This document shows, one piece after another, positions 1,850-27,656 of a stretch of DNA of 64,000 nt. The position numbers and the translations under genes are program-made. Numbering within the stretch: the stretch's first letter is position 1; every line of letters begins with the position of its first letter. The DNA lies in NCBI GenBank assembly GCA_965221955.1, contig CBDCTA010000028.1, forward strand, positions 118,700 to 182,699, given 5' to 3'. Source of the stretch: Gammaproteobacteria bacterium. Its GTDB lineage: Bacteria; Pseudomonadota; Gammaproteobacteria; UBA4575. Below the pieces are notes generated by a model. It saw nothing but the letters and a program-made list of their open reading frames with translations. It did no database searches and was not told where the DNA came from.

Positions 1850-3226
1850 CTAGCCATTAGCAATGGAGAGCATTTCTTCACGGCGCGTAAATTTCTCTCG
1901 AGGTTTATTTTTGGGTTCTCCTGCTGCGACTTCTGCTGCATCAATTTTCATCCATTGGCCATAATTGATGTATTGCACACCATTGCCATCCAAAATTTTA
2001 TACAAAGCTTCTCGACCAGGTTTATTTGCATCTAATTTCGACACATCTTCTAGCAACATATCTACTGACTCCACTGCGCATGCGCGGTTGGTACCTATAA
2101 TTCCAGAAGGACCACGCTTAATCCAACCTGCTGTATATAAACCTGGCACCACATCCCCTCCATGTTCAGTCGTAATACGTCCATTTTCATTAGGGATGGT
2201 GCCCCAACGATCATAGAAAGGTACACCTGGAATAGGCACACCATTGTAGCCAATACTGCGGAATAAAATTCCGCAGTCAATTTCCATGGTTTCACCAATT
2301 CCTTTACAAGATTGTTTAAATGGCTCTCCATCAAGAGTATTAATTTCAAATACAACTTTCTCTAAGCGACCATCACCTTCCAATCGAATAGGGCTTTTTA
2401 GAAACGTAGAAATACAGGTACGCGGCTTTCCTGTGTCTTCAGATTCTGCAAACTTTTGAAAGATTTCGACATTCTTTTTATTCCCACGCCCTTCTTTCAT
2501 TTCCAGTTCTTGCAAACTCGTCTCGTTCAGCTCTAATTCCTTAGGATCAATATAGGCACGACAGTTTTCAATTTCTAAGAATTCTTTTAATTCTTTAGAA
2601 GCAAATTTGGCTTGCGCTGGACCTCGTCGCCCAACCACATAAATCGTTTTAATTTTACTCTCAGCTAATGCATCCAGTGCATGTTGCGAGATATCAGTAT
2701 GTTTCAATTCGTCTACAGACTTCGCCAGAATTCGTGACACATCTGCTGCAACATTCCCTTGACCAATCACAATTGCAGTTTCGTGTGAAAGATCAAATGT
2801 ACGGTCCCGGTAATCTGGATGTCCGTTATACCAACCTACAAACTCTGTTGCCGTGTAACTACCTAATAAATCTTCGCCAGGTACGCCTAACTTACGATCG
2901 GTTTCAGCACCACAGGTATAAATTACGGCATGGTGTGTTTCTTGTAATTCTTCTGCCTTAATATCCTTACCTACCGTTACATTGCCGACAAAATTAAACT
3001 CAGGATTTTGTGCGATTTTCTTATATACTTCGATCGCCTGCTTGAGTTTTGGATGATCAGGAGCCACACCACTGCGCACCAGACCAAATGGTGCAGGCAA
3101 CCTTTCAATCAAATCGATTTCAACATTGAGGTCAGACTTAATTAATGCTTCGGTTGCATAGAAACCACTTGGACCACTTCCAACAATGGCTACACGTAAT
3201 GGGTTACTTTCGCTTCCAAGACTCAT
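1850..3226 (-). CDS. Ferredoxin-NADP+ reductase, adrenodoxin-reductase/FprA type
   Basis: VAIVGSGPSG (FAD), GLVRSGVAPDH, IGQGNVAADV (NADP), GRRGP and GWIKRGPSGIIGTN motifs. Confidence 0.9.
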   Translation of the reverse strand: MSLGSESNPLRVAIVGSGPSGFYATEALIKSDLNVEIDLIERLPAPFGLVRSGVAPDHPKLKQAIEVYKKIAQNPEFNFVGNVTVGKDIKAEELQETHHAVIYTCGAETDRKLGVPGEDLLGSYTATEFVGWYNGHPDYRDRTFDLSHETAIVIGQGNVAADVSRILAKSVDELKHTDISQHALDALAESKIKTIYVVGRRGPAQAKFASKELKEFLEIENCRAYIDPKELELNETSLQELEMKEGRGNKKNVEIFQKFAESEDTGKPRTCISTFLKSPIRLEGDGRLEKVVFEINTLDGEPFKQSCKGIGETMEIDCGILFRSIGYNGVPIPGVPFYDRWGTIPNENGRITTEHGGDVVPGLYTAGWIKRGPSGIIGTNRACAVESVDMLLEDVSKLDANKPGREALYKILDGNGVQYINYGQWMKIDAAEVAAGEPKNKPREKFTRREEMLSIANG

Positions 3227-3271
3227 TCAAAACTCCTCATCATTAATCTATTTCTTATATTTATTTACTAC

Positions 3272-3300
3272 AAACAAAACGCACAGGAAATTGCTGTGCG
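3272..3300 (-). terminator. Possible intrinsic terminator between the ferredoxin and reductase genes
   Basis: CGCACAG-N7-CTGTGCG hairpin followed on the minus strand by TTTTGTTT. Confidence 0.45.
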
Positions 3301-3332
3301 TAATTAAAGTCTATATATTTTCTAGCAAAAGT

Positions 3333-3454: not shown

Positions 3455-3760
3455 TTAGAATCCTAATTCTGATTTGCGATCTTCAGCACCAGGCAATGGA
3501 TCCATGGGCTCTTCAATTAAAGGCAGGTCACCGCATTTTTCAGCGTTGATTTCAACCCAGCCTTCTTGGCCTTCAGGAATGTCATCTTCTTCATAAATAG
3601 CCTCTACTGGACATTCTGGAATACATGCACTGCAATCAATACAAACCTCAGGGTCGATATAAAGCATTTCATCATCGTAGTGAAAACACGCAACTGGACA
3701 AACCGAAACACAATCTGTGAATCGACAGCCCTTACAATTTTCAGTTACAACTGTAGTCAT
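3455..3760 (-). CDS. fdxA: 7Fe ([3Fe-4S][4Fe-4S]) ferredoxin, Azotobacter FdI type
   Basis: CKGCRFTDCVSVCPVAC and CIDCSACIPECP motifs. ATG 3760 has a GGAG RBS and is preferred over the track start at 3799. Confidence 0.9.
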   Translation of the reverse strand: MTTVVTENCKGCRFTDCVSVCPVACFHYDDEMLYIDPEVCIDCSACIPECPVEAIYEEDDIPEGQEGWVEINAEKCGDLPLIEEPMDPLPGAEDRKSELGF

Positions 3761-3847: not shown

Positions 3848-4666
3848 TTATTTTGAAAACAATAAAACCTCGCCACGATTGAGTTCAATCCCGTCTCCGC
3901 TATAACGTTTGTAGATACCATTTAGGTGTTTATCTTGAATTTTCCTCTTGAAGCCATGGTCTTGCAACTTCCTAAGATAAAATCTTAAAAATAGTGGGCG
4001 ATATGTGCACGCATACTCGAAGCTAGGTAACATCTGCGCATCTTCTAATGATGCAATAGTGCCACGTTTCATACCTGCACCCGTTCGAATACCTAATTCA
4101 CCCAAAACAATAATCGAACCTGCCAACATATTTACACCTGTGAAATCACCTGCGTTTCCACCAATCGCAATAAAACCACGGCGCATGGCACTACCAATCT
4201 CGTTTTTTGCATCGCCATGAATAAATATTTCTCCACCTGTAATACCTACGGTATGACCTCTGTATGCAGCTCCAACCATGTGGCCAGCATTCTTTTTAAC
4301 AACAATACGACCACCCGACATTTCAGGGCCCACCCAATCTCCAGCATTACCTTCTACGACAATTTCTCCACCTGACATTCCTAATCCAAGGTGCATGCCT
4401 ACATCACCTTCAATGATGATTTTGCCCTCTGACATACCGGCACCAATCATTTTTACATTGGATAAATCGCCCTCGAGTAAAATTTCAGAATTGCCTTTAC
4501 CTGTTACTGTAAAGAAATCGCCTAAATTTGCTTTTACATTGCCATGCATTACAGGTAAATGCTCAATACCTGATTGTGATAGACCAGATAGTGTTGCCGT
4601 GTTAAGCACTTCAGCTTCCAACGGTACATCTGGTTGAGTGTGCAATTTTAAATGCGCTGTAGACAT
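3848..4666 (-). CDS. fwdC: Formylmethanofuran dehydrogenase subunit C (GXGXG beta-helix)
   Basis: Repeated GxxMSGGxIxxxGNAG units; last gene of the fwdDBA-ftr-C block. Confidence 0.9.
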   Translation of the reverse strand: MSTAHLKLHTQPDVPLEAEVLNTATLSGLSQSGIEHLPVMHGNVKANLGDFFTVTGKGNSEILLEGDLSNVKMIGAGMSEGKIIIEGDVGMHLGLGMSGGEIVVEGNAGDWVGPEMSGGRIVVKKNAGHMVGAAYRGHTVGITGGEIFIHGDAKNEIGSAMRRGFIAIGGNAGDFTGVNMLAGSIIVLGELGIRTGAGMKRGTIASLEDAQMLPSFEYACTYRPLFLRFYLRKLQDHGFKRKIQDKHLNGIYKRYSGDGIELNRGEVLLFSK

Positions 4667-4719: not shown

Positions 4720-5610
4720 TTATCCAACTAATTCATTTAAGTGGAATTTATACTTACCTAGCTCTCCACCGTAATTACCTGCCGAAATCATTGTGGCACC
4801 TTTTTCTGCTGCCGCCTTTATACCTCGTCGCATGGCTTCTTTAACGGCATCTTCAGTGAGACCATCGATCACGATCTCATAAATGGCTTCGACATTTTCA
4901 GGCACAACTGTATTATTACTAATTGATCGAAGCGTTGGACAATATGCGTCATTTGTTGATGCAATCATGCCTTTATATTTTGCACCGATTTTACTTCCCG
5001 ATCGCACGACCCCCTGCGGGAAAGGCAAAAATACGCCACCCACTTCACGCATTGCATGAGTTGCTGCAATCGACGCGCGTAATGCGATGCCTCTTGTTGA
5101 ACCAAATATAATTAAATTACCCCCGCCTACTGCGGGTTTAATTCCGAATTGATCATCAATGAGAAACTCACCTGACATTACAGGAATCCGCCACAAGCGA
5201 ATGTCATCAATAAGCTTACTAATTTGATAACCATCACCAAAGAAACGTAATTTACCACCAACAGAAACAGAATCTTCAGATTCCAAACCGTTGTAACAGG
5301 CTGATGTCGGACAAGTCATCACACACTGACCGATACGATCAATTAATTGACCTGCAATGGTTTTAGAACTCATAGTGAATAACAACACGCTTATTCCAGG
5401 ACGACCATCTGGTGTATCTGATTCAGGTATTTCACACTCCACTGCAGCTTCTAATTTGCAACGAATTACAGATGTAGCAAACCCTGTCATAGAAGCCGCC
5501 GCCGCACGCGCCCATTGTTTCGTATCAGCAGTGATAATCACTCGCGAGCCACACATTTCAAATGCTTCTGCAAATGTATCTACAATTTCAGTTTTACCAA
5601 TTTTCATCAT
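4720..5610 (-). CDS. ftr: Formylmethanofuran:H4MPT formyltransferase, copy 1
   Basis: IVDTFAEAF, ETPDGRPG-like TPDGRPG, RIGQCVMTCPT, RSGSK and AGNYGG motifs. Confidence 0.93.
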   Translation of the reverse strand: MMKIGKTEIVDTFAEAFEMCGSRVIITADTKQWARAAAASMTGFATSVIRCKLEAAVECEIPESDTPDGRPGISVLLFTMSSKTIAGQLIDRIGQCVMTCPTSACYNGLESEDSVSVGGKLRFFGDGYQISKLIDDIRLWRIPVMSGEFLIDDQFGIKPAVGGGNLIIFGSTRGIALRASIAATHAMREVGGVFLPFPQGVVRSGSKIGAKYKGMIASTNDAYCPTLRSISNNTVVPENVEAIYEIVIDGLTEDAVKEAMRRGIKAAAEKGATMISAGNYGGELGKYKFHLNELVG

Positions 5611-5623: not shown

Positions 5624-7270
5624 CTAAGCTTTAGGGTTTACAGGAACCACTTCATGTTTGTGTAAATATTCTTCACCAATTGCATAGTTGCTAAACTTAA
5701 CCGAATAATAATCTTCAAAGAATGGCTCAATTTCACCCGCAATATCTTCGTTATAACCTGGTTTAGAATGCAGTAGTTTGCCCTTATGGTCTGTTGCAAA
5801 TTCATGATCTTTAATTACCGTTACACCATCTTTGATGACATAACGTGGTGCATTAAACATCGCTTCTTTATCATCTTCTTCAGTGTAGATTGTAATGTCC
5901 GCATCAGCGCCGTTTCCAAGATGACCTTTATTCGCCAACCCCAAGGCTCTTGCAGGGCCAGCACGAGTAATAATGGCAATTTCATTTAAAGTATATTCAC
6001 GATCTAAGTCACGCAAACTAGATTGGTCAATTGCTTTTTGATTTACATGTTTCAGTGCTTCTTTTCTATAACCACTATCCATTAATAACTTAATCAGTTT
6101 TGGATAACTCATAAATGAACCACCATTTGGATGATCTGTTGATAGCAAAACACGCCATGGGTCTTTTGAATGCAGAAACAATTCTAAACCCATTGCCCAT
6201 TGCAAGGCGTGGGTGTACACACTTTCTTGATAAGAAAACGGAATAATTCCACACCCACTTTCACATTCTGTATCAGCATTTACCCACTTCGCAGGTTTTA
6301 CGTTTCTTAACATCCACGCCAAGGGGGCATCTGCAGTCATTGCAGTCGCTTTACCAAACATGACCTGACCCACATCACAGGTGATGTTTTCGTTATCATT
6401 TACGTAATCAATTATATCTTTTACACCAGACTTGGCGTTTTTATTTAACTCTCCCCCAAAACTATGAAACTGGATATGCGCCATGTGTACTCGACGACCT
6501 TGTGCAGCTTTCATCGTGTCCAGCGTGGTACTGATGTTTCCGCTGTGACCCAAATTATTACAATGCACGTGTGGCGGATGAGGCAATCCTAATTCATGCG
6601 CAGCTTCAATAAAGCTTTCGATAACATGATTTGGCGTGATATCGTAGTGATCGATTTTCTCATTAACGTTGGTAATATTTGCATTTTTACGTCCCTTCCA
6701 TAATTCATCACTACCCACGTTTACTAGCTTAAGTGTGTGTGCATGCACGGAATTAATCCACCATGCAATTGCTTCTTTAAATTCGTTCTTGCGACCTTCT
6801 TTAAGTAGTTTATATAAAAATGCATTATTCCCAAGCAACACATAGAAACCTTTATCAATAACTGGTGTGTCATCTAATTCTTCTAAGGTATGTCTTGCAG
6901 ATATCGGTGGAACTGCTGCTTCCATTGCTGTGGTGTATCCCATGGTGGCATATCGATACCCAGTCGCAAAAGTAGAAGGCACAATACCTCCTGTTCCGGA
7001 ACGTGTAATCGCAGTTTTTGGATGCACATCTAAACGATGATCTTCAGGTTGAAGTTTTCGTGCTAGATTTACTTTTGCACCTGCAATATGACAATGAATA
7101 TCTACTGCGCCTGGCATAATCACCATGCCATGTGCATCTATTTTAGTTGCTGAACCCGAAACTGAATCAACGACCTTGCCGTCTTTTACACAGACGTCTT
7201 GAACTTTACCATCGATATTGTTTGCAGGATCGTATACACGACCATTTACAATTCTTAACTCTGAAGACAT
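5624..7270 (-). CDS. fwdA: Formylmethanofuran dehydrolase/dehydrogenase subunit A (binuclear amidohydrolase), copy 1
   Basis: GRVYDPAN, DIHCHIAG, KLVN, HVHCNNLG, AHIQFHSFG and STDHPNGG motifs. Confidence 0.93.
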   Translation of the reverse strand: MSSELRIVNGRVYDPANNIDGKVQDVCVKDGKVVDSVSGSATKIDAHGMVIMPGAVDIHCHIAGAKVNLARKLQPEDHRLDVHPKTAITRSGTGGIVPSTFATGYRYATMGYTTAMEAAVPPISARHTLEELDDTPVIDKGFYVLLGNNAFLYKLLKEGRKNEFKEAIAWWINSVHAHTLKLVNVGSDELWKGRKNANITNVNEKIDHYDITPNHVIESFIEAAHELGLPHPPHVHCNNLGHSGNISTTLDTMKAAQGRRVHMAHIQFHSFGGELNKNAKSGVKDIIDYVNDNENITCDVGQVMFGKATAMTADAPLAWMLRNVKPAKWVNADTECESGCGIIPFSYQESVYTHALQWAMGLELFLHSKDPWRVLLSTDHPNGGSFMSYPKLIKLLMDSGYRKEALKHVNQKAIDQSSLRDLDREYTLNEIAIITRAGPARALGLANKGHLGNGADADITIYTEEDDKEAMFNAPRYVIKDGVTVIKDHEFATDHKGKLLHSKPGYNEDIAGEIEPFFEDYYSVKFSNYAIGEEYLHKHEVVPVNPKA

Positions 7271-7351
7271 ATATTTTAGTTGTTATTTTTTACAACAACT
7301 CCATCGCTGCAGTTGCTCTAAATTTATTAATTATGTTATCCGTTTTAAAAT

Positions 7352-8725
7352 TTACGCAGCAACGCGTGCTTTACTTCCCTTAAGCTTTTCTTTAACGCGT
7401 TTGCGAATCGCCTCTAATACTTCTTGGTCGGATGGATAGGTCGATTCAAATGCAGGGCGCAAAGAAATCGGCACATCATCCATTCTATAAACTGTACCAC
7501 CTGTGTTAATGCCATAAGTTGAAACTGCAAAACGCACTTTAGCAATACTACTTGTCACTGTGTCTTTTGTATCTAATGAAATAATTGGAATTTTCTTCAT
7601 ATGTTCAATTGCAGCTTTAGGAAAATTTGACGCAGGATCAGAAGCAATAATCATCGCCGCATCCGCCTCTCCACGTGAAAGCAAATCAGTCGTTGTAAAT
7701 TCACCTGGATTAAAACGAGGGTAGCCGCGATTGAAATTCACACCAAAAGGATATCCTGTTTGCCAAGACACAACATTATCAGCTCCTGTCACATTACCAT
7801 GGCCACGTACAGGTTTAGCTACGAAGTGAGTAAATTCATTTAAATCTGCCGCTAATGACAATAACGCTCCCGAATTAAAATGCCGCCCTCTCGTCATCGT
7901 TAAACCCATACCAAAAAACAACACGCCAAATTGGCAGTTCTTCATGCGATCAACTAAGTCATCTAATACATCTCGTGATACGCCTGTTTGTTCTTCAATG
8001 TCGTTACTAATCTTTTTACCTTTAACCAACGCACGCAACGCCCATAGTACTTCAAAGTCTTTACCAGGTTTAAGTTTTACAAAGATATCCGCTACAGGCG
8101 CACTTGGTGTTTTACGCACATCAAATAACACTACAGTACGATCTTTTTTCCCATTTGGAATGTACATACCTTTTGGTGTTACCGCATAACGTGTGAAATG
8201 TCGTGGATGTGATTCAGCTGGATTACCACCCCAGTAGATAATTAAATCTGCACGGTTCTTAACTTCACCTAATGTTGCAGTACTCTCCCCTACTCCTTGG
8301 AAGGCCATACCCGATGGACCGTGACAAACTGACGTTGTGGTATCAATGTTCCCGTTTATCGTATCCATGATATCTACGGTGACACGTTGTGCTTCACAAG
8401 TTGAATCACTCATTCCATACGTGATTGGAAACTTTGCATCAACTAAGATCTTTGCTGCTGCTTCAACACCTTCTTCAAAACTGGCTTTTTTACCATCAAT
8501 TAACACTTCTGGGCGCGTATCTAAAGTGTGTTCGTAAAACCAGGCACGGCCTAAAACACACGCTTTTTTAGCTTTGGTAATTTTATGTTGATCTAGATCG
8601 ACTGTGAGTTCCATATCGTCACAAACACAACCACAAAAGGTGCACGTTGCGTCTTTAACGATTTTAATATTTTTATTTTCTTCTTTGGTTTTTACGGGTG
8701 CTTTTGCAGGCGCTGTTTCACTCAT
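7352..8725 (-). CDS. fwdB: Formylmethanofuran dehydrogenase subunit B (Mo/W-bisPGD catalytic subunit, motifs intact)
   Basis: CTFCGCVCDD...KACVLG [4Fe-4S] ligands, SVCHGPS (metal-ligating Cys plus His), TLGEVKNRAD, NPAESHPRH and RGHGNV. Confidence 0.92.
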   Translation of the reverse strand: MSETAPAKAPVKTKEENKNIKIVKDATCTFCGCVCDDMELTVDLDQHKITKAKKACVLGRAWFYEHTLDTRPEVLIDGKKASFEEGVEAAAKILVDAKFPITYGMSDSTCEAQRVTVDIMDTINGNIDTTTSVCHGPSGMAFQGVGESTATLGEVKNRADLIIYWGGNPAESHPRHFTRYAVTPKGMYIPNGKKDRTVVLFDVRKTPSAPVADIFVKLKPGKDFEVLWALRALVKGKKISNDIEEQTGVSRDVLDDLVDRMKNCQFGVLFFGMGLTMTRGRHFNSGALLSLAADLNEFTHFVAKPVRGHGNVTGADNVVSWQTGYPFGVNFNRGYPRFNPGEFTTTDLLSRGEADAAMIIASDPASNFPKAAIEHMKKIPIISLDTKDTVTSSIAKVRFAVSTYGINTGGTVYRMDDVPISLRPAFESTYPSDQEVLEAIRKRVKEKLKGSKARVAA

Positions 8726-8756
8726 AACAAATATTCCAAATAATTAAGTAATAAAT

Positions 8757-9101
8757 TTATCTTGCTTTAGTAACGGTAACTTCCATATGTTTAGACAATG
8801 GCATACCTGTTCCAGCAGTATCCGATGCCATCAATTCACTTGAAGGTGGCCCATACGGAATAAAAATCATTCCTGAGGGAAGGTCTTCATCTTTTTTACT
8901 TTTACAGGTCACTACAGTTTGGCCAACCTCTGACTTCAAACGAATTTTGTCACCATCTTTCAACTTAAGTCGCTTCATGTCTTTTTCATTCAGCTCAGCA
9001 GTAGAGGTTACTTTCTTATATTCGTCTTTAAGCTTGCCTTCATTTAGAGATGTCCCCTGGCTTTGTGACCGGCCGGGTACAAGTATCATGGTCTCCGCCA
9101 T
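8757..9101 (-). CDS. fwdD: Formylmethanofuran dehydrogenase subunit D (molybdopterin dinucleotide-binding domain)
   Basis: GRSxxQG, LNxxDMKRLxLKDGDKI, GMIFIPYGP and TAGTGMPxxK motifs; first gene of the operon. Confidence 0.88.
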   Translation of the reverse strand: MAETMILVPGRSQSQGTSLNEGKLKDEYKKVTSTAELNEKDMKRLKLKDGDKIRLKSEVGQTVVTCKSKKDEDLPSGMIFIPYGPPSSELMASDTAGTGMPLSKHMEVTVTKAR

Positions 9102-9460
9102 CTAGGATTCCTTATAAATACAAAAAGTAATAAGTTTTTACTGTAAGCGAGAGAAAATAGATCTTAGGCCAAATTTCGTTCCACCAAACGTATTCGATGA
9201 GAAAAACCGCCAATTGTCTACCCCAAATTTAAGGTAAAGAGGTAGTGTGTGCTAACTCTGCAGAGATATAATGTTAGCATATTTAACTTAATTTACACCT
9301 GCTTTAGCTAATATTTGAGGCTATATAGGGGTTAAAGCTGGGTAAGAAATAAACAGTTACAGCAAGTTAGCAACTAGCTTGAACAGGCTATAATTCGCTA
9401 CACTAAACTGATAAGAACAATTGAATACCATAATAACAACCCTATTCAAGGAGATTTTCC

Positions 9461-9733: not shown

Positions 9734-9748
9734 TCTCAATAAAATCTA

Positions 9749-9870
9749 ATTACATCGAGATTTTGATTTAGTATGAAGCGCAGTGCTTTCGAGAAGCAGA
9801 GTTTACATTTAAATAAATGAGCATCGCTGAAAGTACTGCAACGAAGTAATAGATCAAAAGATCACGTAAT
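9749..9870. repeat. Palindromic intergenic element (RPE/MITE-like), copy 2
   Basis: Nested IRs ATTAC/GTAAT, TTTTGATTTA/TAGATCAAAA and GCAGTGCTTTC/GAAAGTACTGC; core GAGTTTAC-N7-TAAATGAGCA...AACGAAGTA. Confidence 0.7.
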
Positions 9871-10160: not shown

Positions 10161-10164
10161 GCAA

Positions 10165-19705: not shown

Positions 19706-21364
19706 ATGGCGATTAAACTTTCAAGTGGCCAAGTGTATGATCCCGCACATCAAGTAGATGGTGAGAATAGAGATTTATATATTGTTGACGGCAAACTGCA
19801 AAGTAATTTATCCGACAGTGAAAAAATAGAACAAACGTATCAATTAGATGATTGCATAGTAATGGCAGGTGCAATCGATTTGCATACACATATAGGTGGT
19901 GGAAAAGTAAATATCGCCCGCACTATGATGTTGGATGATGCACATGATCATCCGCATGCAAGTTCTGAAATTTGCCGTGCTGGCAATGGCCATATCGTAC
20001 CTTCTACATTTAGTACAGGTTATCGTTACGCTGAAATGGGTTACACCGCGTGCTTTGAACCTGCTGTTCTCCCCGTCAATGCTCGACAAGCCCATATGGA
20101 AATGGCTGATACACCTATGGTGGACAAAGGTGGTTACGCAATGTTGGGGAATGACGACTTTTTATTAAACATGATCCACAGTGGCGCAACTCAACAAGCT
20201 ATTAACGACTATGTTGCATGGATATTAGATGCCAGCCAATGTATTGGCATTAAAGTAGTTAACGCTGGTGGCATTCATGCCTTTAAATATAATCAACGAA
20301 GACTTGATATAGATGAGACCGGCCCTGCAGGCAGCAAACCTCGAGAAATCATTAACAAACTTAGTAGAGCCGTGCATGATCTTGGACTTGCGCACCCTTT
20401 ACATGTTCACGCAAGTAACTTAGGTGTACCTGGTAACTTTGAGTCAACACTGGCTACCATGTCTGCAGCGGATGGTTTACCGATCCATCTCACACATATT
20501 CAGTTTCATAGTTATGGCACTGAAGGTGACTATAAGTTTTCTTCAGCGGCCTGCGAAATTGCAGAAGCCATTAACTACAATAAAAATGTTACCGCAGATG
20601 TTGGGCAAATCATGTTTGGCCAAACCATCACAACCTCTGGCGACACCATGATGCAGTATTTTGGCCATGATCATGCTTCACCAAAAAAATGGACAGTGAT
20701 GGACATTGAATGCGAAGCAGGCTGCGGTGTGATTCCATTTAAATATCGTGATAAAAGTTTTGTAAACGCATTGCAATGGGCCATTGGTTTAGAAATATTT
20801 TTACAAGTAAACGATCCGTGGCGTGTATTTCTCACCACCGATCATCCTAATGGCGCGCCTTTTACAAGCTATCCTCACTTAATAAAACTATTAATGGATC
20901 ACTCATTTAGAAATGATGTATTCAGCATCGTTCATGCTGATGCACAAAAAGCATCAAACTTAGCCGCGATGGATCGCGAATATTCTTTATATGAAATCGC
21001 CATCATGACGCGCGCAGCACCGGCTAAAATATTAGGTTTAAAAGGTCATGGTCATTTAGGTGATGGTGCGCATGCAAATATCACGGTATATCGTAAACAA
21101 GACGATGTTGAACAAATGTTTGCGAAACCTGCTTATGTATTCAAAAACGGCACTTTAATTGTTAAGGATGGCAAAATAATTGAAACGGTTCAAGGCGTCA
21201 CTCATGTAACTAAGCCCGAATACGACCCTGCTATCGAAAAACCATTGAAGAAGTACTTTGATGATTATCAAACTATTTCTCTAAATAACTTTAAAATTTC
21301 AAATGATGAAATGGTAGAATGCATCGGTAGCGACATAGAAACGCATTCTTGTAAGAATAATTAA
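19706..21364 (+). CDS. fhcA: Formyltransferase/hydrolase complex subunit A
   Basis: DLHTHIGGGKVN, KVVNAGG, HVHASNLG, THIQFHSYG and TTDHPNGAP motifs. Confidence 0.93.
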   Translation: MAIKLSSGQVYDPAHQVDGENRDLYIVDGKLQSNLSDSEKIEQTYQLDDCIVMAGAIDLHTHIGGGKVNIARTMMLDDAHDHPHASSEICRAGNGHIVPSTFSTGYRYAEMGYTACFEPAVLPVNARQAHMEMADTPMVDKGGYAMLGNDDFLLNMIHSGATQQAINDYVAWILDASQCIGIKVVNAGGIHAFKYNQRRLDIDETGPAGSKPREIINKLSRAVHDLGLAHPLHVHASNLGVPGNFESTLATMSAADGLPIHLTHIQFHSYGTEGDYKFSSAACEIAEAINYNKNVTADVGQIMFGQTITTSGDTMMQYFGHDHASPKKWTVMDIECEAGCGVIPFKYRDKSFVNALQWAIGLEIFLQVNDPWRVFLTTDHPNGAPFTSYPHLIKLLMDHSFRNDVFSIVHADAQKASNLAAMDREYSLYEIAIMTRAAPAKILGLKGHGHLGDGAHANITVYRKQDDVEQMFAKPAYVFKNGTLIVKDGKIIETVQGVTHVTKPEYDPAIEKPLKKYFDDYQTISLNNFKISNDEMVECIGSDIETHSCKNN

Positions 21365-21368: not shown

Positions 21369-22286
21369 ATGATTATCAATGGCGTTGAAATAGAAGATAC
21401 GTTTGCTGAAGCATTCCCTATGCGTGCAACACGCGTAATAATTACTGCCATCAACTACAAATGGGCGCGCCATGCAGCAGATACAATGACAGGTTTTGCA
21501 ACCTCTGTAATTGGTTGTGGCGTTGAAGCGGGAATTGAAAAAGTGATCGGTAATCACGAAACGCCTGACGGTAGGCCAGGTGTTTCTGTTCTACTATTTT
21601 CTACTGATAAAAAAACGTTAGAAAAACAATTGCAGACACGCATTGGGCAATGCGTGCTGACCTGTCCCACTACTGCAGTTTTTTCCGGTATGGATGGAGA
21701 CGACCAAATTTCACTCGGAAAAAACATTCGTTATTTTGGCGACGGATTTCAAACTTCTAAAAAAATTGGCAACAAAAGATTTTGGCGCGTTCCAGTCATG
21801 GATGGCGAATTTTTATGTGCCGAAAGTACTGGCTACCAAAAAGCTATTGGTGGTGGGAATATTTTAGTTTTTGCGCGCGGTATTTCACATGCATTGCTTG
21901 CTTGTGAAGCTGCTATTGATGCAATCAGCATGTTACCTAACATCATCATGCCGTTTCCTGGCGGTGGTGTGCGTTCTGGTTCAAAAGTTGGATCAAAATA
22001 TAAATTTTTAAGTGCCTCCACTAATCATCCTTATTGCCCTACCTTAAAAGGTCGTCCTGATAATGTGCTTGGAAAAAATATCGAAGCAGCAATGGAAATT
22101 GTTATTGACGGTTTAACTAAAGAAGATGTGTCTTTAGCAATGTATCGTGGTATTGAAGCGATATGCGATCTTGGAAAATCTCAAGGCATCGAAAAAATTA
22201 CTGGTGGTAATTATGGTGGTAAGTTAGGGCCACATCATTTTCATTTAAGAGAAATCATGCATGAGTCTTACAACCGTTACATATAA
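21369..22286 (+). CDS. fhcD: Formylmethanofuran:H4MPT formyltransferase (Fhc subunit D), copy 2
   Basis: IEDTFAEAF, ETPDGRPG, RIGQCVLTCPT and GGNYGGKLG motifs. Confidence 0.93.
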   Translation: MIINGVEIEDTFAEAFPMRATRVIITAINYKWARHAADTMTGFATSVIGCGVEAGIEKVIGNHETPDGRPGVSVLLFSTDKKTLEKQLQTRIGQCVLTCPTTAVFSGMDGDDQISLGKNIRYFGDGFQTSKKIGNKRFWRVPVMDGEFLCAESTGYQKAIGGGNILVFARGISHALLACEAAIDAISMLPNIIMPFPGGGVRSGSKVGSKYKFLSASTNHPYCPTLKGRPDNVLGKNIEAAMEIVIDGLTKEDVSLAMYRGIEAICDLGKSQGIEKITGGNYGGKLGPHHFHLREIMHESYNRYI

Positions 22287-23097
22287 AAGCGACTCAAATA
22301 AAGAACCGCAATTTCGCTTAGATATGCACTGGCTTAGTAATGCGATTGATTGTGCCTGCAGCAGTGATGATGCCAAAAAACTTACTCTACAGATTGGTAA
22401 CGAAACATCGCCAGTTGGTGATCATTTTGAGATAGAGGGAAACTTTGATCAACAAACGATTCGTTTAGAAAATGCAAATCAAAAGATGGATTTTGTTGGC
22501 TACGCTTTACCTGAAAACATAGAACTTAATGTTGCAGGCGATGTAGGTCATTATGCTGGCAGTTCCTTAAAGGGTGGTAAATTAAAAATTCAAGGAAATG
22601 TCGATGACTTTGCTGGCTGCGAGATGTCCAAGGGAGTGCTTGAAATCAACGGCAATGCTGGCGACTACTTAGGTGGTGCACAGGCAGGAAATAAAAAAGG
22701 CATGTCCGGAGGTTCTATCCTTGTACATGGTAACAGTAATCATTTCACAGGAGATCTAATGCGCCGTGGCACTATCATGGTAGTGGGCAATATTGGCGAT
22801 TACTGTGCTAGCCGAATGATTGCTGGCACAATTGCGAATTTGGGCACCATAGGCAAACAAGTTGGGGTCGGTATGCGCAGAGGAACGATTCTATTACCCC
22901 ACAAACCCAAAGATGTGATCACTGGATTTCATGATTGTGGGCGTCACAACTTAGGCTATTTAACGCTACTTCTGCATGAGATCAGAAGCTTTGAAAGCAC
23001 CTTCCAGTCTCTTCATCCTATGAGACGGCGTGTTCAGCGTTATTTAGGCGATACTGCGGTAGGTGGACAAGGGGAAATGCTAATTTGGATTGGCTGA
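22261..23097 (+). CDS. fhcC: Formyltransferase/hydrolase complex subunit C
   Basis: GXGXG beta-helix repeats, MRRGTI and RYLGDxAVGGQGE motifs. Confidence 0.9.
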   Translation: MSLTTVTYKSDSNKEPQFRLDMHWLSNAIDCACSSDDAKKLTLQIGNETSPVGDHFEIEGNFDQQTIRLENANQKMDFVGYALPENIELNVAGDVGHYAGSSLKGGKLKIQGNVDDFAGCEMSKGVLEINGNAGDYLGGAQAGNKKGMSGGSILVHGNSNHFTGDLMRRGTIMVVGNIGDYCASRMIAGTIANLGTIGKQVGVGMRRGTILLPHKPKDVITGFHDCGRHNLGYLTLLLHEIRSFESTFQSLHPMRRRVQRYLGDTAVGGQGEMLIWIG

Positions 23098-23205: not shown

Positions 23206-24882
23206 ATGGATAAAACAGTTACACGTAAACGTAATAAAATGCGAGGCGAAAAGCGCGGCCGACGTGTAGACCTTAATGTCTTAGAACAAATCCGTGAGCT
23301 ACTATCTCCTCTGCCTCAGCGACGTGATTTACTCATCGAATACTTGCATTTAATCCAAGATAAATACGGCCACATATCAGCGGCTCACATCACAGCTCTT
23401 GCAAGTGAAATGAAACTCGCCACCACTGAAATCTATGAGGTTGCAACGTTTTATCATCATTTTGATGTAATCAAAGAAGGCCAAACCCCTCCTCCGCCAT
23501 TGACGGTACGTGTTTGTGATTCGATCAGTTGCCAAATGAATGATGCCGAAACTTTAGTACGTGAATTAGAAAATTTTTATAAAAAAGATGTGCGCATCCA
23601 ACGTGTACCATGCGTAGGAAGATGTGCAGAGGCCCCTATTGCAGTAGTTGGAAAAAATCCTATTCAACATGCAACGCTTGAAAAGGTTTGTGCAACGGTT
23701 GATAAAGGTGAAACCGAAGCAGCTGTAGCTGAACATATTACTTATAACAACTATGTAAACAGTGGCGGCTATGAATTATTAAAACGTTCGTTTGACAGCA
23801 CCGATTCGGCGGAAAAAATTATTGAAATCATGAAAGACTCGGGTCTGCGCGGTTTGGGTGGAGCGGGATTTCCTGCTGGACTGAAATGGGAAATTGTTCG
23901 CAATTATGAAGGTCCACGTGTATTAGCAGTCAATATTGACGAAGGTGAGCCTGGAACATTTAAAGATCGTTATTTTTTAGAAAAAGATCCGCACCGATTT
24001 ATTGAAGGTGCATTAATCGCGGCACAGGTAGTAGGTATCGATGAAATTTATATTTATTTGCGAGATGAGTATCAAGGTTGCTACACCACTTTGCTACATG
24101 AGCTCGATGAACTAAAGAAAGACCCTCCCTTGCAATTACCGCATATTGAATTACGCCGTGGTGCAGGTGCTTATATTTGTGGCGAAGAGTCCGCCATGAT
24201 CGAATCGATTGAAGGCAAACGCGGAATGCCACGTTTACGACCTCCTTTTGTTGCTGAAGTAGGTGTGTTTGGAAGACCTACACTTGAACACAATTTAGAA
24301 ACTCTTTTCTGGGTACGCGACATTATTGAAAAAGGTGCTGATTGGTTTACTTCACATGGTCGCAATGAAAGAAAAGGCTTACGTTCATTTTCAGTAAGCG
24401 GGCGTGTTAAAAAGCCTGGTGTACATGTTACTGATGCAGGGATCACGATTAATGAACTGATCGAGGAACATTGCGGCGGTATGTTAGATGGACATGAATT
24501 CTATGGTTACTTTCCTGGCGGTGCTTCAGGTGGAATTCTGCCTGCTTCTATGGGTGATATCCCTTTAGACTTTGACACATTAAATGAACATGGCTGTTTC
24601 ATCGGTTCGGCAGCGATCATCATTTTTTCAGACAAAGACAAAGCGCGTGACCTAGCCCAAAACGCTATGGAATTCTTTTCACATGAGTCATGTGGAAAGT
24701 GCACACCTTGCAGAGTTGGCACTTCCAAAGCGGCCATGCTGATGAAAAAACCAAAGTGGGATCAATCACTGATGCAAGAGCTTTCGCAAACCATGAATGA
24801 CGCTTCAATTTGTGGATTAGGACAAGCTGCATCAAATCCGATGACATCGGTAATAAATTATTTCCCTAAAGAACTCGATTAA
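23206..24882 (+). CDS. NAD-dependent formate dehydrogenase beta subunit (NuoE+NuoF-like; FMN, FeS)
   Basis: RVCDSISC and CVGRC [2Fe-2S], SGLRGLGGAGFP, DEGEPGTFKD, GAGAYICGEE and ESCGKCTPCR; architecture of methylotroph Fdh1B. Confidence 0.9.
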   Translation: MDKTVTRKRNKMRGEKRGRRVDLNVLEQIRELLSPLPQRRDLLIEYLHLIQDKYGHISAAHITALASEMKLATTEIYEVATFYHHFDVIKEGQTPPPPLTVRVCDSISCQMNDAETLVRELENFYKKDVRIQRVPCVGRCAEAPIAVVGKNPIQHATLEKVCATVDKGETEAAVAEHITYNNYVNSGGYELLKRSFDSTDSAEKIIEIMKDSGLRGLGGAGFPAGLKWEIVRNYEGPRVLAVNIDEGEPGTFKDRYFLEKDPHRFIEGALIAAQVVGIDEIYIYLRDEYQGCYTTLLHELDELKKDPPLQLPHIELRRGAGAYICGEESAMIESIEGKRGMPRLRPPFVAEVGVFGRPTLEHNLETLFWVRDIIEKGADWFTSHGRNERKGLRSFSVSGRVKKPGVHVTDAGITINELIEEHCGGMLDGHEFYGYFPGGASGGILPASMGDIPLDFDTLNEHGCFIGSAAIIIFSDKDKARDLAQNAMEFFSHESCGKCTPCRVGTSKAAMLMKKPKWDQSLMQELSQTMNDASICGLGQAASNPMTSVINYFPKELD

Positions 24883-24902
24883 GGAATGTTGGAGAAAAAG
24901 TA

Positions 24903-27656
24903 ATGGCTGCAAATCCAGAACAATTAGAGGATTTCAAAACAGTAGAGTTTTCGCTTAACGGTGAAAAGATAAAAGCCTATGAAAGCGAAAGTATTTTGGA
25001 AGCCGCTAAACGTCACGGTGTAGACATTCCTCACTTATGCTATAAGCCTGGTATGCGTGCAGATGGAAATTGTCGTGCTTGCATGGTTGAAATCGAAGGT
25101 GAACGTGTTTTACAACCTTCTTGTGTGCGTACTCCAACGGAGGGAATGGTAGTTAACACTGAAAATGAACGTGTTAACCATTCTCAAAAAATGGTGTTGG
25201 AGTTGCTCCAATCCGATATGGCCGAAAGTCAATACACACTCAATAGTGAACTTGATCATTGGTCTAAAGAGCTAGAAGTAGGTTTACCTCGTTTTGAGTC
25301 ACGCCATAATCCCGAACAAGATTTATCTCACCCTGCGATTGCAGTGAATTTAGATGCATGTATTCAATGCACACGATGTGTACGTGCCTGCAGAGAAGAA
25401 CAAAACAATGATGTCATTGGTTATGCAAATCGTGGCGCTCACTCTGAAATTGTATTTGATATCCAAGATCCAATGGGCGACAGTACTTGTGTCGCATGTG
25501 GAGAATGCGTGCAAGCTTGTCCTACGGGAGCATTAATGCCTTCGCAACAGTTAGGCATGCTAGAGCCTGACCGTAAAGTTGAATCAACATGCCCTTATTG
25601 TGGTGTAGGTTGTTTACTTACTTACAATATTAAAGATGAAAAAATTATTTATGTAGAAGGACGCGACGGACCAGCAAACAAAAGTAGATTGTGCGTTAAA
25701 GGCCGCTACGGATTTGACTATGTACATCATGTCGGACGCATCACAAAGCCGCTCATTCGAAAACAAGGTGTTTCAAAAGATATAGGCAATCTTGAATCAC
25801 TAAGCTACAAGGACATCGATCAATATTTCCGCGAAGCTACCTGGGACGAAGCGCTCGACCTTGCTGCAAAAGGCTTAGTCGATATTCGAGATCAGCATGG
25901 CCCTAACGCCTTAGCGGGATTTGGTTCTGCAAAAGGCTCCAACGAAGAAGCTTATTTGTTCCAAAAATTAGTTCGCACTGGTTTTAAAACCAACAATGTT
26001 GATCACTGCACACGCTTATGTCATGCCTCTTCTGTTGTAGCATTACTTGAAGGAATTGGCTCTGGCGCAGTTTCAAATCCGGTTGAAGATGTTTCTAGAG
26101 CAGATGTAATCGTAATTATTGGTTCGAATACAACTGAAAATCACCCTGTAGCGGCAACTTTTGTTAAAAACGCAAAACGTAATGGTGCAAAATTAATTGT
26201 TATGGACCCAAGGCGGTCCGACATCGCTCGCCATGCCGATTATTTTTTACAGTTCAAACCTGACACAGATGTGGCCATGTTAAATGGCATCATGAACTCT
26301 ATTATTAAGCAAAACTTGCTAGATAAAGAATTTATTAAAAACCGCACGGAGAATTTTGCAGAGTTTGCAAAACATATACTTAAGTACACTCCAGAAAAAG
26401 TTGAAAAAATCTGTGGTATCCCTGCAGCGACGCTACATGAAGTTGCAAAAATTTATGCAAGCTCTAACGCTTCTATCATTTTCTGGGGTATGGGTGTATC
26501 CCAACATATCCATGGTACTGACAACGCACGCTGCTTGATCGCACTTTCTATGATGACAGGTCAAATTGGTCGACCTGGTACAGGCTTACATCCACTACGC
26601 GGTCAGAACAATGTGCAAGGCGCTTCCGATGTAGGATTAATACCAATGGTTTTCCCAGATTATCAGCGTGTAGACAGCCCTGAAGCACACTCGCGTTTTG
26701 AAAAATTATGGGACACTGAATTAGATGACAACCCTGGTTTAACGGTTGTGGAAATTATGCACGCCATATCAGATGGAAACTTACATGGAATGTATATTAT
26801 GGGTGAAAATCCAGCAATGTCTGACCCGAACTTAAACCATGCTCGCAAAGCACTTGCAACGCTTAAACATTTAGTTGTGCAAGATATTTTTATGACTGAA
26901 ACTGCATGGTTTGCAGATGTCATCCTTCCTGCATCGGCTTTTCCAGAAAAAACAGGAACCTTCACTAATACAGACCGTCGTGTTCAATTAGGCAGACAAG
27001 CATTAATGCCTCCAGGTGAAGCAAAACAAGATTTATGGCTCATTAATGAAATTGCGAATCGTATGGGACTCGATTGGAAATACCACCACCCATCTGATGT
27101 GTTTAACGAAATGCGTCAAGGCATGGATAGCATTAAAGGTATGACATGGGAGCGCTTAGAAGAACAACATTCAATAACATATCCGTGTGAAGAAGAAAAT
27201 GACCCTGGACAAAGTGTAATTTTTACAGATGACTTTCCGACCGAAAATGGCAGAGGTAAGTTTGTACCTGCAGAATTCACCAATGCTGATGAATTACCGG
27301 ATCAAGAATATCCCTTTATATTGGTCACAGGTCGACAATTGGAACACTGGCATACCGGCTCAATGACACGTCGTGCAAGTATGCTCGATGCAATAGAACC
27401 CGTACCGGTTGCAAGCATTAATCCTAATGATCTTGCCAAACTAGGTCTCAATGCGGGTGACAGAATTAAGTTATCCTCTAGACGCGGAGAAATTGAATGC
27501 TTTGCACGTGAGGAACATGGGGTTAACCCAGGACAAGTGTTTATGCCTTTCTGCTATCGAGAAGCTGCAGCAAACTTACTGACAAATGAAGCACTGGACC
27601 CCTTTGGGAAAATACCAGAATTCAAGTTTTGTGCACTGCAAGTAGCTCCCGCATAA
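24903..27656 (+). CDS. Formate dehydrogenase alpha subunit (W/Mo-bisPGD, Cys ligand; Fdh1A-like)
   Basis: N-terminal FeS motifs (NCRAC, CIQCTRCVRAC, CVACGECVQACP), CPYCGVGC, DHCTRLCHASS, RGQNNVQG and KIPEFK. Confidence 0.93.
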   Translation: MAANPEQLEDFKTVEFSLNGEKIKAYESESILEAAKRHGVDIPHLCYKPGMRADGNCRACMVEIEGERVLQPSCVRTPTEGMVVNTENERVNHSQKMVLELLQSDMAESQYTLNSELDHWSKELEVGLPRFESRHNPEQDLSHPAIAVNLDACIQCTRCVRACREEQNNDVIGYANRGAHSEIVFDIQDPMGDSTCVACGECVQACPTGALMPSQQLGMLEPDRKVESTCPYCGVGCLLTYNIKDEKIIYVEGRDGPANKSRLCVKGRYGFDYVHHVGRITKPLIRKQGVSKDIGNLESLSYKDIDQYFREATWDEALDLAAKGLVDIRDQHGPNALAGFGSAKGSNEEAYLFQKLVRTGFKTNNVDHCTRLCHASSVVALLEGIGSGAVSNPVEDVSRADVIVIIGSNTTENHPVAATFVKNAKRNGAKLIVMDPRRSDIARHADYFLQFKPDTDVAMLNGIMNSIIKQNLLDKEFIKNRTENFAEFAKHILKYTPEKVEKICGIPAATLHEVAKIYASSNASIIFWGMGVSQHIHGTDNARCLIALSMMTGQIGRPGTGLHPLRGQNNVQGASDVGLIPMVFPDYQRVDSPEAHSRFEKLWDTELDDNPGLTVVEIMHAISDGNLHGMYIMGENPAMSDPNLNHARKALATLKHLVVQDIFMTETAWFADVILPASAFPEKTGTFTNTDRRVQLGRQALMPPGEAKQDLWLINEIANRMGLDWKYHHPSDVFNEMRQGMDSIKGMTWERLEEQHSITYPCEEENDPGQSVIFTDDFPTENGRGKFVPAEFTNADELPDQEYPFILVTGRQLEHWHTGSMTRRASMLDAIEPVPVASINPNDLAKLGLNAGDRIKLSSRRGEIECFAREEHGVNPGQVFMPFCYREAAANLLTNEALDPFGKIPEFKFCALQVAPA

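Follow-up and report, generated by a model that had tools for sequence, protein, structure and literature searches.

The 64,000-nucleotide stretch of DNA analysed here (the window) forms the terminal 64 kb of a 182.7-kb contig in the 2.69-Mb genome (29 contigs, 96.6% complete) of an uncultured, probably non-autotrophic marine gammaproteobacterium. Within it, a methanethiol oxidase (mtoX) cluster is bracketed by two sets of genes for the terminal steps of one-carbon (C1) oxidation: a formylmethanofuran dehydrogenase (Fwd) operon on the minus strand and, on the plus strand, a formyltransferase/hydrolase set (fhcBADC) followed by the genes of a formate dehydrogenase (Table 1). We assigned genes from the open reading frame (ORF) listing and from Pfam and NCBIfam scans, and compared their products with the Protein Data Bank (PDB) in a phmmer-type sequence search. 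An earlier note on this DNA, made from the letters alone, had described the same gene order and had credited each set with its own formyltransferase. The scans bear out both observations and place all named genes at the coordinates in Table 1. Identities between the paralogous subunits of the two sets are 42% (A), 25% (B), 31% (C) and 52% (formyltransferase).

Table 1. Genes of the C1/organosulfur region, with positions in the window and the matches behind each assignment (aa, amino acids).
Feature	Position	Strand	Assignment and match
fprA	1850-3226	-	adrenodoxin-reductase-type NADPH:ferredoxin oxidoreductase
fdxA	3455-3760	-	7Fe (3Fe-4S + 4Fe-4S) ferredoxin, 101 aa from ATG; FdxA_Protbact 110 bits
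fwdC	3848-4666	-	TIGR03122 252 bits (cut-off 131); FhcC-like C-terminal segment
ftr	4720-5610	-	formylmethanofuran:tetrahydromethanopterin formyltransferase; TIGR03119 409 bits (cut-off 293)
fwdA	5624-7270	-	amidohydrolase subunit; TIGR03121 702 bits (cut-off 393)
fwdB	7352-8725	-	dehydrogenase subunit of the molybdenum/tungsten (Mo/W)-bis(pyranopterin guanine dinucleotide) (bisPGD) type; TIGR03129 506 bits (cut-off 328)
fwdD	8757-9101	-	cap (fourth-domain) subunit, 114 aa; FwdD model 87 bits; Pfam Molydop_binding 48.6 bits
SCO4226-like gene (DUF4242)	9461-9733	+	Pfam PF14026 98.5 bits; Shine-Dalgarno-like AAGGAGA upstream
conserved 96-aa ORF	9870-10160	-	closes the mtoX cluster; 52-84% identical in related loci
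tlpA-like gene	10165-10839	-	TlpA/ResA-like thiol:disulfide oxidoreductase; scores in text
tlpA-like gene	10884-11402	-	TlpA/ResA-like thiol:disulfide oxidoreductase; scores in text
mauG-like gene	11533-12891	-	MauG/MbnH-like di-haem peroxidase; Pfam CCP_MauG 176 bits; TIGR04039 251 bits (below cut-off)
sco1-like gene	12888-13637	-	SCO1/SenC-like copper chaperone; Pfam SCO1-SenC 56 bits
mtoX copy 1	13747-15126	-	intact methanethiol oxidase; NCBIfam MthilOxMtoX equivalog 764 bits (cut-off 650)
mtoX copy 2	15396-16778	-	in tandem with copy 1; broken as assembled
second sco1-like gene	17167-17736	+	SCO1/SenC-like; Pfam SCO1-SenC 156.5 bits
PCD gene	17780-18169	-	pterin-4a-carbinolamine dehydratase (PCD) homologue; Pfam Pterin_4a 85 bits
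fhcB	18435-19700	+	421 aa; TIGR03129 231 bits (below cut-off 328)
fhcA	19706-21364	+	NCBIfam 724 bits
fhcD	21369-22286	+	NCBIfam 429 bits
fhcC	22261-23097	+	NCBIfam 219 bits
fdsGB fusion	23206-24882	+	558 aa; Pfam 2Fe-2S_thioredx + Complex1_51K + NADH_4Fe-4S
fdsA	24903-27656	+	TIGR01591 (Fdh-alpha) 802 bits (cut-off 666)

The minus-strand operon (fwdDBA-ftr-fwdC-fdxA-fprA) encodes subunits of the redox-type Fwd/Fmd kind. FwdB has its best PDB matches in archaeal enzymes, with 378-389 bits to 9sfi, 5t5i and 8rja (327-389 over five archaeal chains) and only 56 bits to FhcB of Methylorubrum extorquens (6s6y_B). FwdA likewise scores 472-485 bits to 9sw6, 8rja and 5t5i (436-485 over five archaeal chains) and 346 bits to M. 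extorquens FhcA. Cys134-His135 of FwdB align with the SVCHGPS motif of 5t5i_B, which contains the catalytic Cys-His of the Methanothermobacter wolfeii enzyme, and an RGHGNV motif is aligned too. Furthermore, Cys28, Cys31, Cys35 and Cys56 align with the N-terminal [4Fe-4S] cysteine motif of the same chain, and the HxH, Lys, His, His and Asp motifs of FwdA, which supply the ligands of the binuclear metal site, align with 5t5i_A (ligand numbering partly after PMC6926001). The operon lacks genes for the polyferredoxins FwdF and FwdG in the Pfam and NCBIfam scans, and the only other iron-sulfur (FeS) protein that it encodes is the 101-aa FdxA.

We assessed conservation in 80 related loci retrieved with the window's FwdB as query; the locus counts given from here on (e.g., out of 53, 75, 51 or 48) refer to loci with enough flanking sequence to be testable. 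The four cluster cysteines and Cys134/His135 are conserved in 77/77 covered orthologues and Arg307 in 79/79, and fwdD lies directly before fwdB in 74/75 loci. Among the Fhc-type B subunits of these loci, the catalytic Cys is present in 0/26, the His in 1/26 and the Arg in 3/26. In the parts of their paper considered here, Hemmann et al. (2019) describe the loss from Fhc of Cys118, His119 and Arg288 (M. wolfeii numbering), of FwdD and of the FeS domain (PMC6926001). Thus, the minus-strand set does not belong to the Fhc kind, whose B subunit lacks the dehydrogenase residues and which has no FwdD. Because the dehydrogenase site, the FeS domain and FwdD are all retained, this set should release no formate.

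The plus-strand set is an ordinary member of the FhcABCD kind: FhcB has neither Cys-His nor Arg at the catalytic positions, and no fwdD gene lies beside fhcB. The adjoining genes encode a nicotinamide adenine dinucleotide (NAD)-type Mo formate dehydrogenase (FdsGBA), as indicated by the FdsA score and the fused NuoE and NuoF domains. The window's FhcB and the Fhc-type B subunits of other loci (L003-L082) keep the four N-terminal [4Fe-4S] cysteines in 24-26 of 26 cases. The M. extorquens FhcB lacks this N-terminal FeS domain in the account of the structure considered here (PMC6926001). An FhcB with the FeS cysteines and without the residues of the pterin site may therefore represent an intermediate state of Fhc.

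Downstream of fwdC the operon continues with a candidate electron-transfer module. Within the operon, conservation is strongest in FdxA (87% mean column identity over 29 orthologues). Eight of its nine cysteines (all but C12) are among the invariant columns, at what we take to be the positions of Azotobacter FdI. FprA aligns over residues 9-456 with Mycobacterium tuberculosis FprA (1lqt; 367 bits, E 1.5e-108), a full-length match to the FprA/adrenodoxin reductase kind in which the GSGPSG and GRRGP motifs also align; GRRG presumably binds the 2'-phosphate of NADPH. The linkage of this pair to the operon is near-invariant. The fdxA-fprA genes follow fwdC in 50 of the 53 loci, and in the remaining three (two Gemmatimonadota bins and one betaproteobacterial bin) fprA is found upstream of fwdD. 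Hence, fprA adjoins the operon in 53/53 loci. The other fwd operons, bacterial and archaeal, that we examined in a second set of 80 loci (retrieved with a Synergistaceae FwdB as query) showed neither gene.

The second set also separates the operon types by gene order. Archaeal operons run fwdD-B-A-C without ftr, and those of Synergistaceae, Syntrophobacteraceae and Actinomycetota run fwdD-B-A, about 3.5 kb of methanopterin biosynthesis genes, and then ftr-fwdC. In the first set, the order fwdA-ftr-fwdC is kept in 53/53 loci. A quick maximum-likelihood tree of 56 B subunits resolves three supported FwdB clades (supports from the Shimodaira-Hasegawa-like approximate likelihood-ratio test): an archaeal clade (98), a Synergistota/Thermodesulfobacteriota/Actinomycetota clade (98) and the fdxA-fprA type (100), with members from Pseudomonadota and Gemmatimonadota and two bins with odd labels. 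The order among the three clades is unsupported, and FhcB sits on a very long branch. What is conserved across lineages is the unit fwdDBA-ftr-fwdC-fdxA-fprA, which often has fhc or tetrahydromethanopterin (H4MPT) genes beside it. For example, an Fhc-type set directly follows fprA in 18/48 loci, and in 4 of 7 sampled loci from other lineages that lack mtoX, among them a USC-gamma bin, the fwd operon and H4MPT genes stand back to back. Recombination seems to have exchanged segments of the operon. In L022 (positions 10001-13070) the flanking genes are 90-96% identical to the window, but fwdB is 78% and fwdA 66% identical, and the FwdB falls in another subclade of the tree; in L003 (3381-5224) fwdB is 95% but fwdA 71% identical.

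FwdC carries a C-terminal segment of the FhcC kind. Residues 9-268, including 211-268, align end to end with M. extorquens FhcC (6s6y_C), and alignments to archaeal FwdC end at about 205-223. An FhcC-like C-terminus was aligned by tblastn in 0/31 archaeal FwdC, 16/22 of the other bacterial proteins and 64/66 of the gamma type. Therefore, the FhcC-like tail tends to go with an ftr gene adjacent to fwdC. The AlphaFold model of FwdC (mean predicted local distance difference test score, pLDDT, of 94.9) has helices at 225-239 and 245-248, and its best TM-score is to FhcC 6s6y_C (0.91, root-mean-square deviation 2.0). Hemmann et al. describe a helix-loop-helix at the corresponding site of FhcC as the platform for FhcD, in the parts considered here (PMC6926001). 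Docking of Ftr on the FhcC-like tail of FwdC would fit this model, which is suggestive only.

The mtoX cluster provides the metabolic context of these enzymes. The intact copy of mtoX scores above the equivalog cut-off and has SCO1 and MauG-like genes downstream, in the mtoX-SCO1-mauG order described by Eyice et al. 2018 (PMC5739008). The two TlpA-like genes that follow score, in the order of Table 1, 117.5 and 72.8 bits to ResA (cut-off 170) and 83 and 73 bits to AhpC-TSA. We counted mtoX upstream of fwdB in the 51 loci with at least 7 kb of sequence on that side and found it in 18. The order PCD, mtoX, sco1, mauG, tlpA, fwdD...fprA recurs in these 18 loci, and the adjacency in the window is real and not a misassembly. 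A Logan contig of sequencing run X1, possibly the window's own sample, also spans positions 6840-13469. Conservation of the island in related metagenome-assembled genomes, which the earlier note proposed to check, holds for the fwd unit, which is kept across lineages, and not for the adjacency of mtoX, which is confined to the window's family.

Elsewhere in the genome, the H4MPT route that the same note had supposed upstream of both sets is present, with two fae genes, mch, two MtdA/MtdB-like genes with an Mpt_N domain and H4MPT/methylofuran biosynthesis genes. A block 26-38 kb upstream on the same contig encodes PabB, MfnF-like, MfnD-like and HisA/F-related proteins, Fae, MptN, Mch and beta-RFAP synthase. 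Of the sulfide oxidation genes that the note proposed to look for, a homologue of flavocytochrome c sulfide dehydrogenase (FCSD type) is present, and one sulfite-oxidase-fold protein is encoded. We found no RuBisCO large subunit, no SoxB and, above the cut-off, no pyrroloquinoline quinone (PQQ) methanol dehydrogenase in the 96.6%-complete genome, which leaves MtoX as the only formaldehyde source that can be named.

The distribution of the two sets in the family is of the either/or kind. Five queries, run against 36 other genomes from the window's family, detected Mch in 36/36, MtoX in 34/36, FwdB in 29/36, FhcB in 28/36 and FdsA in 26/36. The two genomes without an MtoX match are the least complete (82% and 77%). 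Eight genomes of genera g3, g4 and g10 (96-99% complete, five of them single-contig) lack FhcB. All eight have FwdB and none has an FdsA-like protein, with matches down to 38% identity passing elsewhere. Conversely, seven genomes (genus g5 and four of five in g7) lack FwdB, and all have FhcB; FdsA was found in 5/7, the two misses being incomplete genomes. No genome among the 36 lacks both FwdB and FhcB, and exactly one A subunit was found in 5/5 Fwd-only and 5/5 Fhc-only genomes tested. Because either set alone is retained with Mch and MtoX and the two are never absent together, Fwd and Fhc-Fds behave as interchangeable terminal routes. Furthermore, the joint loss of Fhc and Fds leaves Fwd as the only visible exit for formyl-H4MPT, with no formate-consuming enzyme seen. 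The Fwd-only genomes provide the strongest argument that Fwd itself may oxidise the formyl group to CO2. In a broad sample of the class, FwdB was found in 21 of 401 genomes (about 5%), four of the 21 in genomes flagged as unpublished. A search of 1.84 billion representative proteins returned 661 nameless matches at E<=1e-30, of which only P0007 was used, as a probe.

We read the region as a conserved C1/organosulfur island with two exits for formyl-H4MPT, one of which would run through Fwd, FdxA and FprA to CO2 and NADPH, and put the probability of this reading at about two in three. A periplasmic copper MtoX, matured by the SCO1, MauG-like and TlpA-like proteins, would convert methanethiol to formaldehyde, sulfide and H2O2. 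Formaldehyde would then pass through methylene-, methenyl- and formyl-H4MPT via Fae, MtdB and Mch. At the first exit, FhcABCD would move the formyl group to methylofuran and hydrolyse it to free formate, which FdsGBA would oxidise to CO2 with reduction of NAD+ to NADH. At the second, Ftr, probably docked on the FhcC-like tail of FwdC, would make formyl-methylofuran, FwdA would hydrolyse it, and FwdBD, with a Mo- or W-bisPGD site formed around Cys134, His135 and Arg307, would oxidise the formate to CO2 within the complex. Electrons would leave through the [4Fe-4S] cluster of FwdB to the 7Fe FdxA, and from there through FprA to NADP+. The CO2/formyl-methanofuran couple has a potential of about -530 mV, compared with -320 mV for NADP. 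These potentials, together with the need of the Fwd-only genomes for an exit, point to the oxidative direction. FdxA and FprA would be the physiological acceptors of Fwd, and the two exits may divide the labour, for instance with NADPH supplied against the H2O2 made by MtoX. Of the branched methanethiol/dimethylsulfide oxidation system proposed in the earlier note, what stands is the presence of two non-equivalent terminal modules, one of Fhc with an NAD-type Fds and one of a redox-competent Fwd with a ferredoxin and an NADPH:ferredoxin reductase. The mtoX and fwd genes do not, however, form one operon, and the switch by oxygen, metal supply or redox demand that the note raised does not find support here.

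We also consider it possible, though we advance the idea tentatively, that the seven-gene operon on its own makes up a formyl-H4MPT:NADP+ oxidoreductase. It would amount to an Fhc whose dehydrogenase is still live, and would be a living intermediate between archaeal Fwd and bacterial Fhc. The docking of Ftr would correspond to step 2 of the Fwd-to-Fhc trajectory of Hemmann et al., in the parts of their work considered here, with step 1 (loss of the Mo/W site) not having occurred. Such an enzyme would take the formyl group to CO2 without free formate, yield NADPH via the 7Fe ferredoxin and have replaced Fhc and formate dehydrogenase in some marine lineages. In methanethiol oxidisers, the NADPH could help the cells cope with the H2O2 and sulfide from MtoX.

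Several observations weigh against the two-exit reading. The scores of two small proteins are low, that of FdxA falling below the NCBIfam cut-off of 135 bits and that of FwdD below the model's 'exception' cut-off of 175 bits. A Mo or W cofactor in FwdBD is to be expected from the conserved site and is not itself visible in sequence. A terminator-like hairpin (3279-3301) sits between fdxA and fprA, so fprA may be partly uncoupled from the operon. Furthermore, FprA-type enzymes are usually described as passing electrons from NADPH to ferredoxin. The opposite-strand SCO4226-like gene between them makes the mtoX cluster and the fwd operon separate transcription units, and the 18 loci with mtoX upstream of fwd are all close relatives, the link to methanethiol being one of synteny. 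The structural case for an FhcC-like platform is modest because the Foldseek E-value places archaeal FwdC first (1.6e-17, versus 3.5e-15 for FhcC), and Ftr is equidistant between FhcD (300.7 bits to 6s6y_D) and the free archaeal Ftr (299.6 bits to 1ftr). Finally, the either/or pattern reflects few independent events (loss of Fhc and Fds in g3, g4 and g10 only, absence of Fwd in g5 and g7 only, with kin that are not independent), and absences in the family mean 'not found with these queries' in the sampled genomes.

The same evidence bears on other explanations of the locus. The minus-strand set could be a second, redox-dead Fhc paralogue that releases formate, its Fwd look being inherited. Its B-A-ftr-C order is indeed that of fhcBADC, and bacterial sets of this kind are routinely annotated fwd or fhc indiscriminately, judging from the parts considered of two such studies (PMC11264602, PMC9874027). 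We find this extremely unlikely, since the residues whose loss defines Fhc are all kept in the orthologues (77/77 to 79/79) and lost in the adjacent Fhc-type B, since FwdD is near-universal in the testable loci, and since formate released in the eight Fwd-only genomes without an FdsA-like enzyme would have no sink. An active Fwd could instead work in reverse, with NADPH passing electrons through FprA and FdxA to fix CO2 into formyl-methylofuran for C1 assimilation. This is the usual description of FprA, and the archaeal enzyme runs in that direction in the sections of a recent review considered here (PMC11656701); a CO2/CO-linked role was also discussed for an actinobacterial operon by Merino et al. 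2020 (PMC7325909). In this organism, however, MtoX is O2-dependent and the oxidative H4MPT route is complete, and its Fwd-only relatives require an oxidative exit for formyl-H4MPT. The reductive direction is also very improbable on energetic grounds because NADPH, at about -320 mV, cannot drive a couple at -530 mV without bifurcation, and the Pfam and NCBIfam scans detect no HdrA-like or NfnAB-like bifurcating module in the operon.

The fate of the electrons is less constrained. Fwd could be active while FdxA feeds other ferredoxin-dependent reactions or the respiratory chain, with FprA merely poising the ferredoxin pool. The hairpin between fdxA and fprA fits such an uncoupling, as do two loci (L028 and L075) where only fprA, and not fdxA, was detected next to the operon at the thresholds used. 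Moreover, archaeal Fwd enzymes use varied electron modules in the descriptions considered here (PMC11656701, PMC11493965). A shared function of Fwd and FprA is nonetheless hard to avoid when fprA adjoins the operon in every testable locus, even where it has been relocated, and we regard this alternative as rather unlikely. The position of mtoX between the two sets could, on the other hand, be a historical accident, with both sets serving general formaldehyde detoxification. The restriction of the mtoX-fwd adjacency to 18 close relatives, the opposite-strand gene that splits the clusters and the H4MPT or unrelated genes that adjoin the operon elsewhere are all consistent with this idea. Against it, MtoX accompanies Mch in nearly all the family genomes, no methanol dehydrogenase above the cut-off offers another source of formaldehyde, and the Fwd-less relatives still hold mtoX between fhcB and fdsA (in G032, G034 and G036 all three sit in a span of about 17 kb). 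An accidental placement is unlikely on this evidence, though it keeps an appreciable probability.

The two-exit reading has precedents among known systems, and to call the system undescribed, as the earlier note did, is too strong. Bacterial fwdDBA-ftr-fwdC and fmdDBAC operons (PMC7325909, PMC4807772) and a route from methanethiol through H4MPT and Fhc to formate dehydrogenase (PMC6548844) are already in print. The closest enzymatic relative by PDB matches is the archaeal FwdABCDFG of M. wolfeii (5T5I), with which the operon shares homologues of FwdA-D, the FeS cysteines, the Cys-His-Arg site and a separate FwdD. It differs in having a 7Fe ferredoxin and FprA instead of FwdF/FwdG, in the ftr gene inside the operon, in the FhcC-like C-terminus of FwdC that archaeal proteins lack, and in its expected oxidative direction in an O2-using bacterium. 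With FhcABCD of M. extorquens (6S6Y; PMC6926001, in the parts considered), the operon shares the B-A-D-C order, the formyltransferase gene within the operon and the end-to-end FwdC/FhcC alignment, and methylofuran/H4MPT biosynthesis genes are present in the window's genome too; the minus-strand set keeps the dehydrogenase site, FeS domain and FwdD that were lost there.

Bacterial operons of similar content are also known. Merino et al. 2020 described fwdDBA-ftr-fwdC without fwdEFG in Hakuba Actinobacteria and noted its resemblance to fhc (PMC7325909), and Kim et al. 2016 described fmdD-B-A-C with Sec or Cys in Planctomycetes and Candidatus Methylomirabilis (M. oxyfera; PMC4807772). Both share with the window's operon FwdD, a Cys/Sec FwdB and the lack of fwdE/F/G. 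They belong, however, to another FwdB clade, and the operons of Synergistaceae, Syntrophobacteraceae and Actinomycetota examined here have methanopterin genes between fwdA and ftr and lack fdxA and fprA. Furthermore, the hosts of these operons are mostly anaerobes or Wood-Ljungdahl bacteria, whereas the window comes from an MtoX-bearing aerobe. For an oxidative formylmethanofuran dehydrogenase (FMD) with a non-standard acceptor module, the coenzyme F420-reducing FMD of Candidatus Ethanoperedens thermophilum (8RJA, among the best PDB matches) is a precedent in the parts of the reports considered here (PMC11493965, PMC11656701). That enzyme of an anaerobic archaeon uses F420 via a fused reductase, whereas the bacterial set would use a free 7Fe ferredoxin and an NADP reductase. 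M. tuberculosis FprA and FdxA (1LQT; PMC6208970) are a further parallel, with a full-length FprA match and a small FdxA-type partner. The mycobacterial pair feeds P450s from NADPH, and the window's pair would take electrons from ferredoxin to NADP+ downstream of a low-potential dehydrogenase. Lastly, the mtoX-SCO1-mauG systems (PMC5739008) and the Methylophaga thiooxydans route (PMC6548844) have the same MtoX, SCO1 and MauG, and formaldehyde passes via H4MPT, Fhc and formate dehydrogenase, a sequence established in Methylophaga. The window adds two TlpA-like genes, placement between terminal C1 modules and the predicted formate-free exit; RuBisCO and PQQ methanol dehydrogenase, which were the only two sought (the ribulose monophosphate pathway was not searched), were not found in its genome.

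Published views of bacterial FwdB have shifted over the years. Chistoserdova (2016) stated that fwdD is not present in Proteobacteria (PMC5020050), and a 2020 phylogeny reported bacterial FwdB as absent (PMC7331816). A 2023 survey counted 149 homologues of FwdB in bacteria, for which it inferred a transfer from Archaea (PMC10100899). In the sections of a 2024 review of FMD considered here, Fhc is the only bacterial relative listed (PMC11656701). Our literature search, which did not cover supplements, returned no paper that links formylmethanofuran dehydrogenase to FprA or a ferredoxin-NADP reductase, or that describes the Fwd/Fhc either/or pattern. As far as the searches show, three findings are thus new: that a single MtoX-bearing family carries Fwd-FdxA-FprA and Fhc-Fds in an either/or distribution, that fdxA-fprA occurs in only one FwdB clade, and that the FhcC-like tail is a bacterial trait linked to ftr.

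Upstream of fwdD, a block at 9235-9262 (TTAGCACACACTAC and neighbouring positions) stays conserved among congeners while the rest of the leader varies, and could serve as a promoter or operator. Elsewhere in the window it recurs no more often than by chance (5 matches versus 5.4 expected), and no riboswitch or RNA regulator was found upstream of fwdD at gathering thresholds or at E<=1. A promoter scan of the window returned fewer promoter-like sites than shuffled sequences (27 versus 54.8), and the promoter and terminator scans were not used save for two hairpins. A putative selenocysteine in the FwdB of G046 was rejected because the TGA flagged inside the match is the stop codon. A more distant FwdB match (G395, 65% identity) has one in-frame TGA flagged, which could be a stop or a selenocysteine codon.

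The two mtoX copies differ in their state. Copy 2 has three 1-nucleotide insertions within about 145 nucleotides that shift and then restore the frame; these alignment gaps are private to copy 2 when it is compared with every relative. It is nevertheless closer to the single mtoX of genus-level relatives (82-85% nucleotide identity, 74-85% over all 14 relatives) than copy 1 (77-80% and 71-80%), so the intact copy 1 looks like the extra copy. We rejected a pseudogene label for copy 2 because rsgA, recR and dnaX in the window (50600-54600) are also each split into at least two ORFs. These splits suggest indel errors in the assembly, and the break in copy 2 may be one of them. The sequences of four contig-only runs of one study show no indel at the insertions, at a depth (about 1.5-3.7) too low to decide. 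A perfect GC-rich palindrome with T-runs (15324-15347) lies between the two copies. In the tlpA-mauG spacer (11443-11537), one Logan contig of run X1 skips 93 nucleotides, probably as a result of strain variation; in the window the skipped stretch looks like two imperfect direct repeats of about 47 nucleotides, and it is no hairpin element.

Other genes of the region and the contig end add detail. The 96-aa ORF that closes the mtoX cluster has no Pfam or NCBIfam match. A minus-strand ORF at 9446-9739 (orf97) is spurious, the real gene there being the plus-strand SCO4226-like gene. The PCD homologue is retained between fhcB and the mtoX cluster in related loci. On the other side (2-1826), a chromate-transporter-family gene is found near fprA, a neighbourhood kept in at least nine related loci, and a hemerythrin-domain gene lies between the two here and in two loci. 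To tie these neighbours to oxyanion (Mo/W) handling or O2 sensing would be a guess. At the contig end, the minus strand (59250-63874) carries a nitrile-hydratase-alpha-like gene, a DsrE-like gene and an NMT1-type ATP-binding cassette (ABC) transporter, which could be a sulfur module of the thiocyanate hydrolase type. The bacterial small signal recognition particle RNA (54596-54692, minus strand, 62.4 bits) is the sole Rfam match in the window.

In the textbook view of bacterial C1 metabolism, the H4MPT pathway ends when Fhc hydrolyses the formyl group to formate, on which a separate formate dehydrogenase then acts. If the two-exit reading is correct, about 5% of the class sample and some Gemmatimonadota would have a second, channelled and formate-free exit, in which reduced ferredoxin or NADPH would retain the low-potential electrons of the formyl group. 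Surveys of metagenomes that treat 'fwd/fhc' as one category would then have to be read differently, and models of carbon flow from methanethiol, dimethylsulfoniopropionate and methanol in marine and sponge-associated bacteria would change. The CO2-fixing FMD machines studied for catalysis would also gain a relative from bacteria that probably tolerates oxygen, and the route by which Fhc is proposed to have evolved from Fwd could be put to a concrete test. Because sister genera of the family differ in which set they keep, the idea is directly testable.

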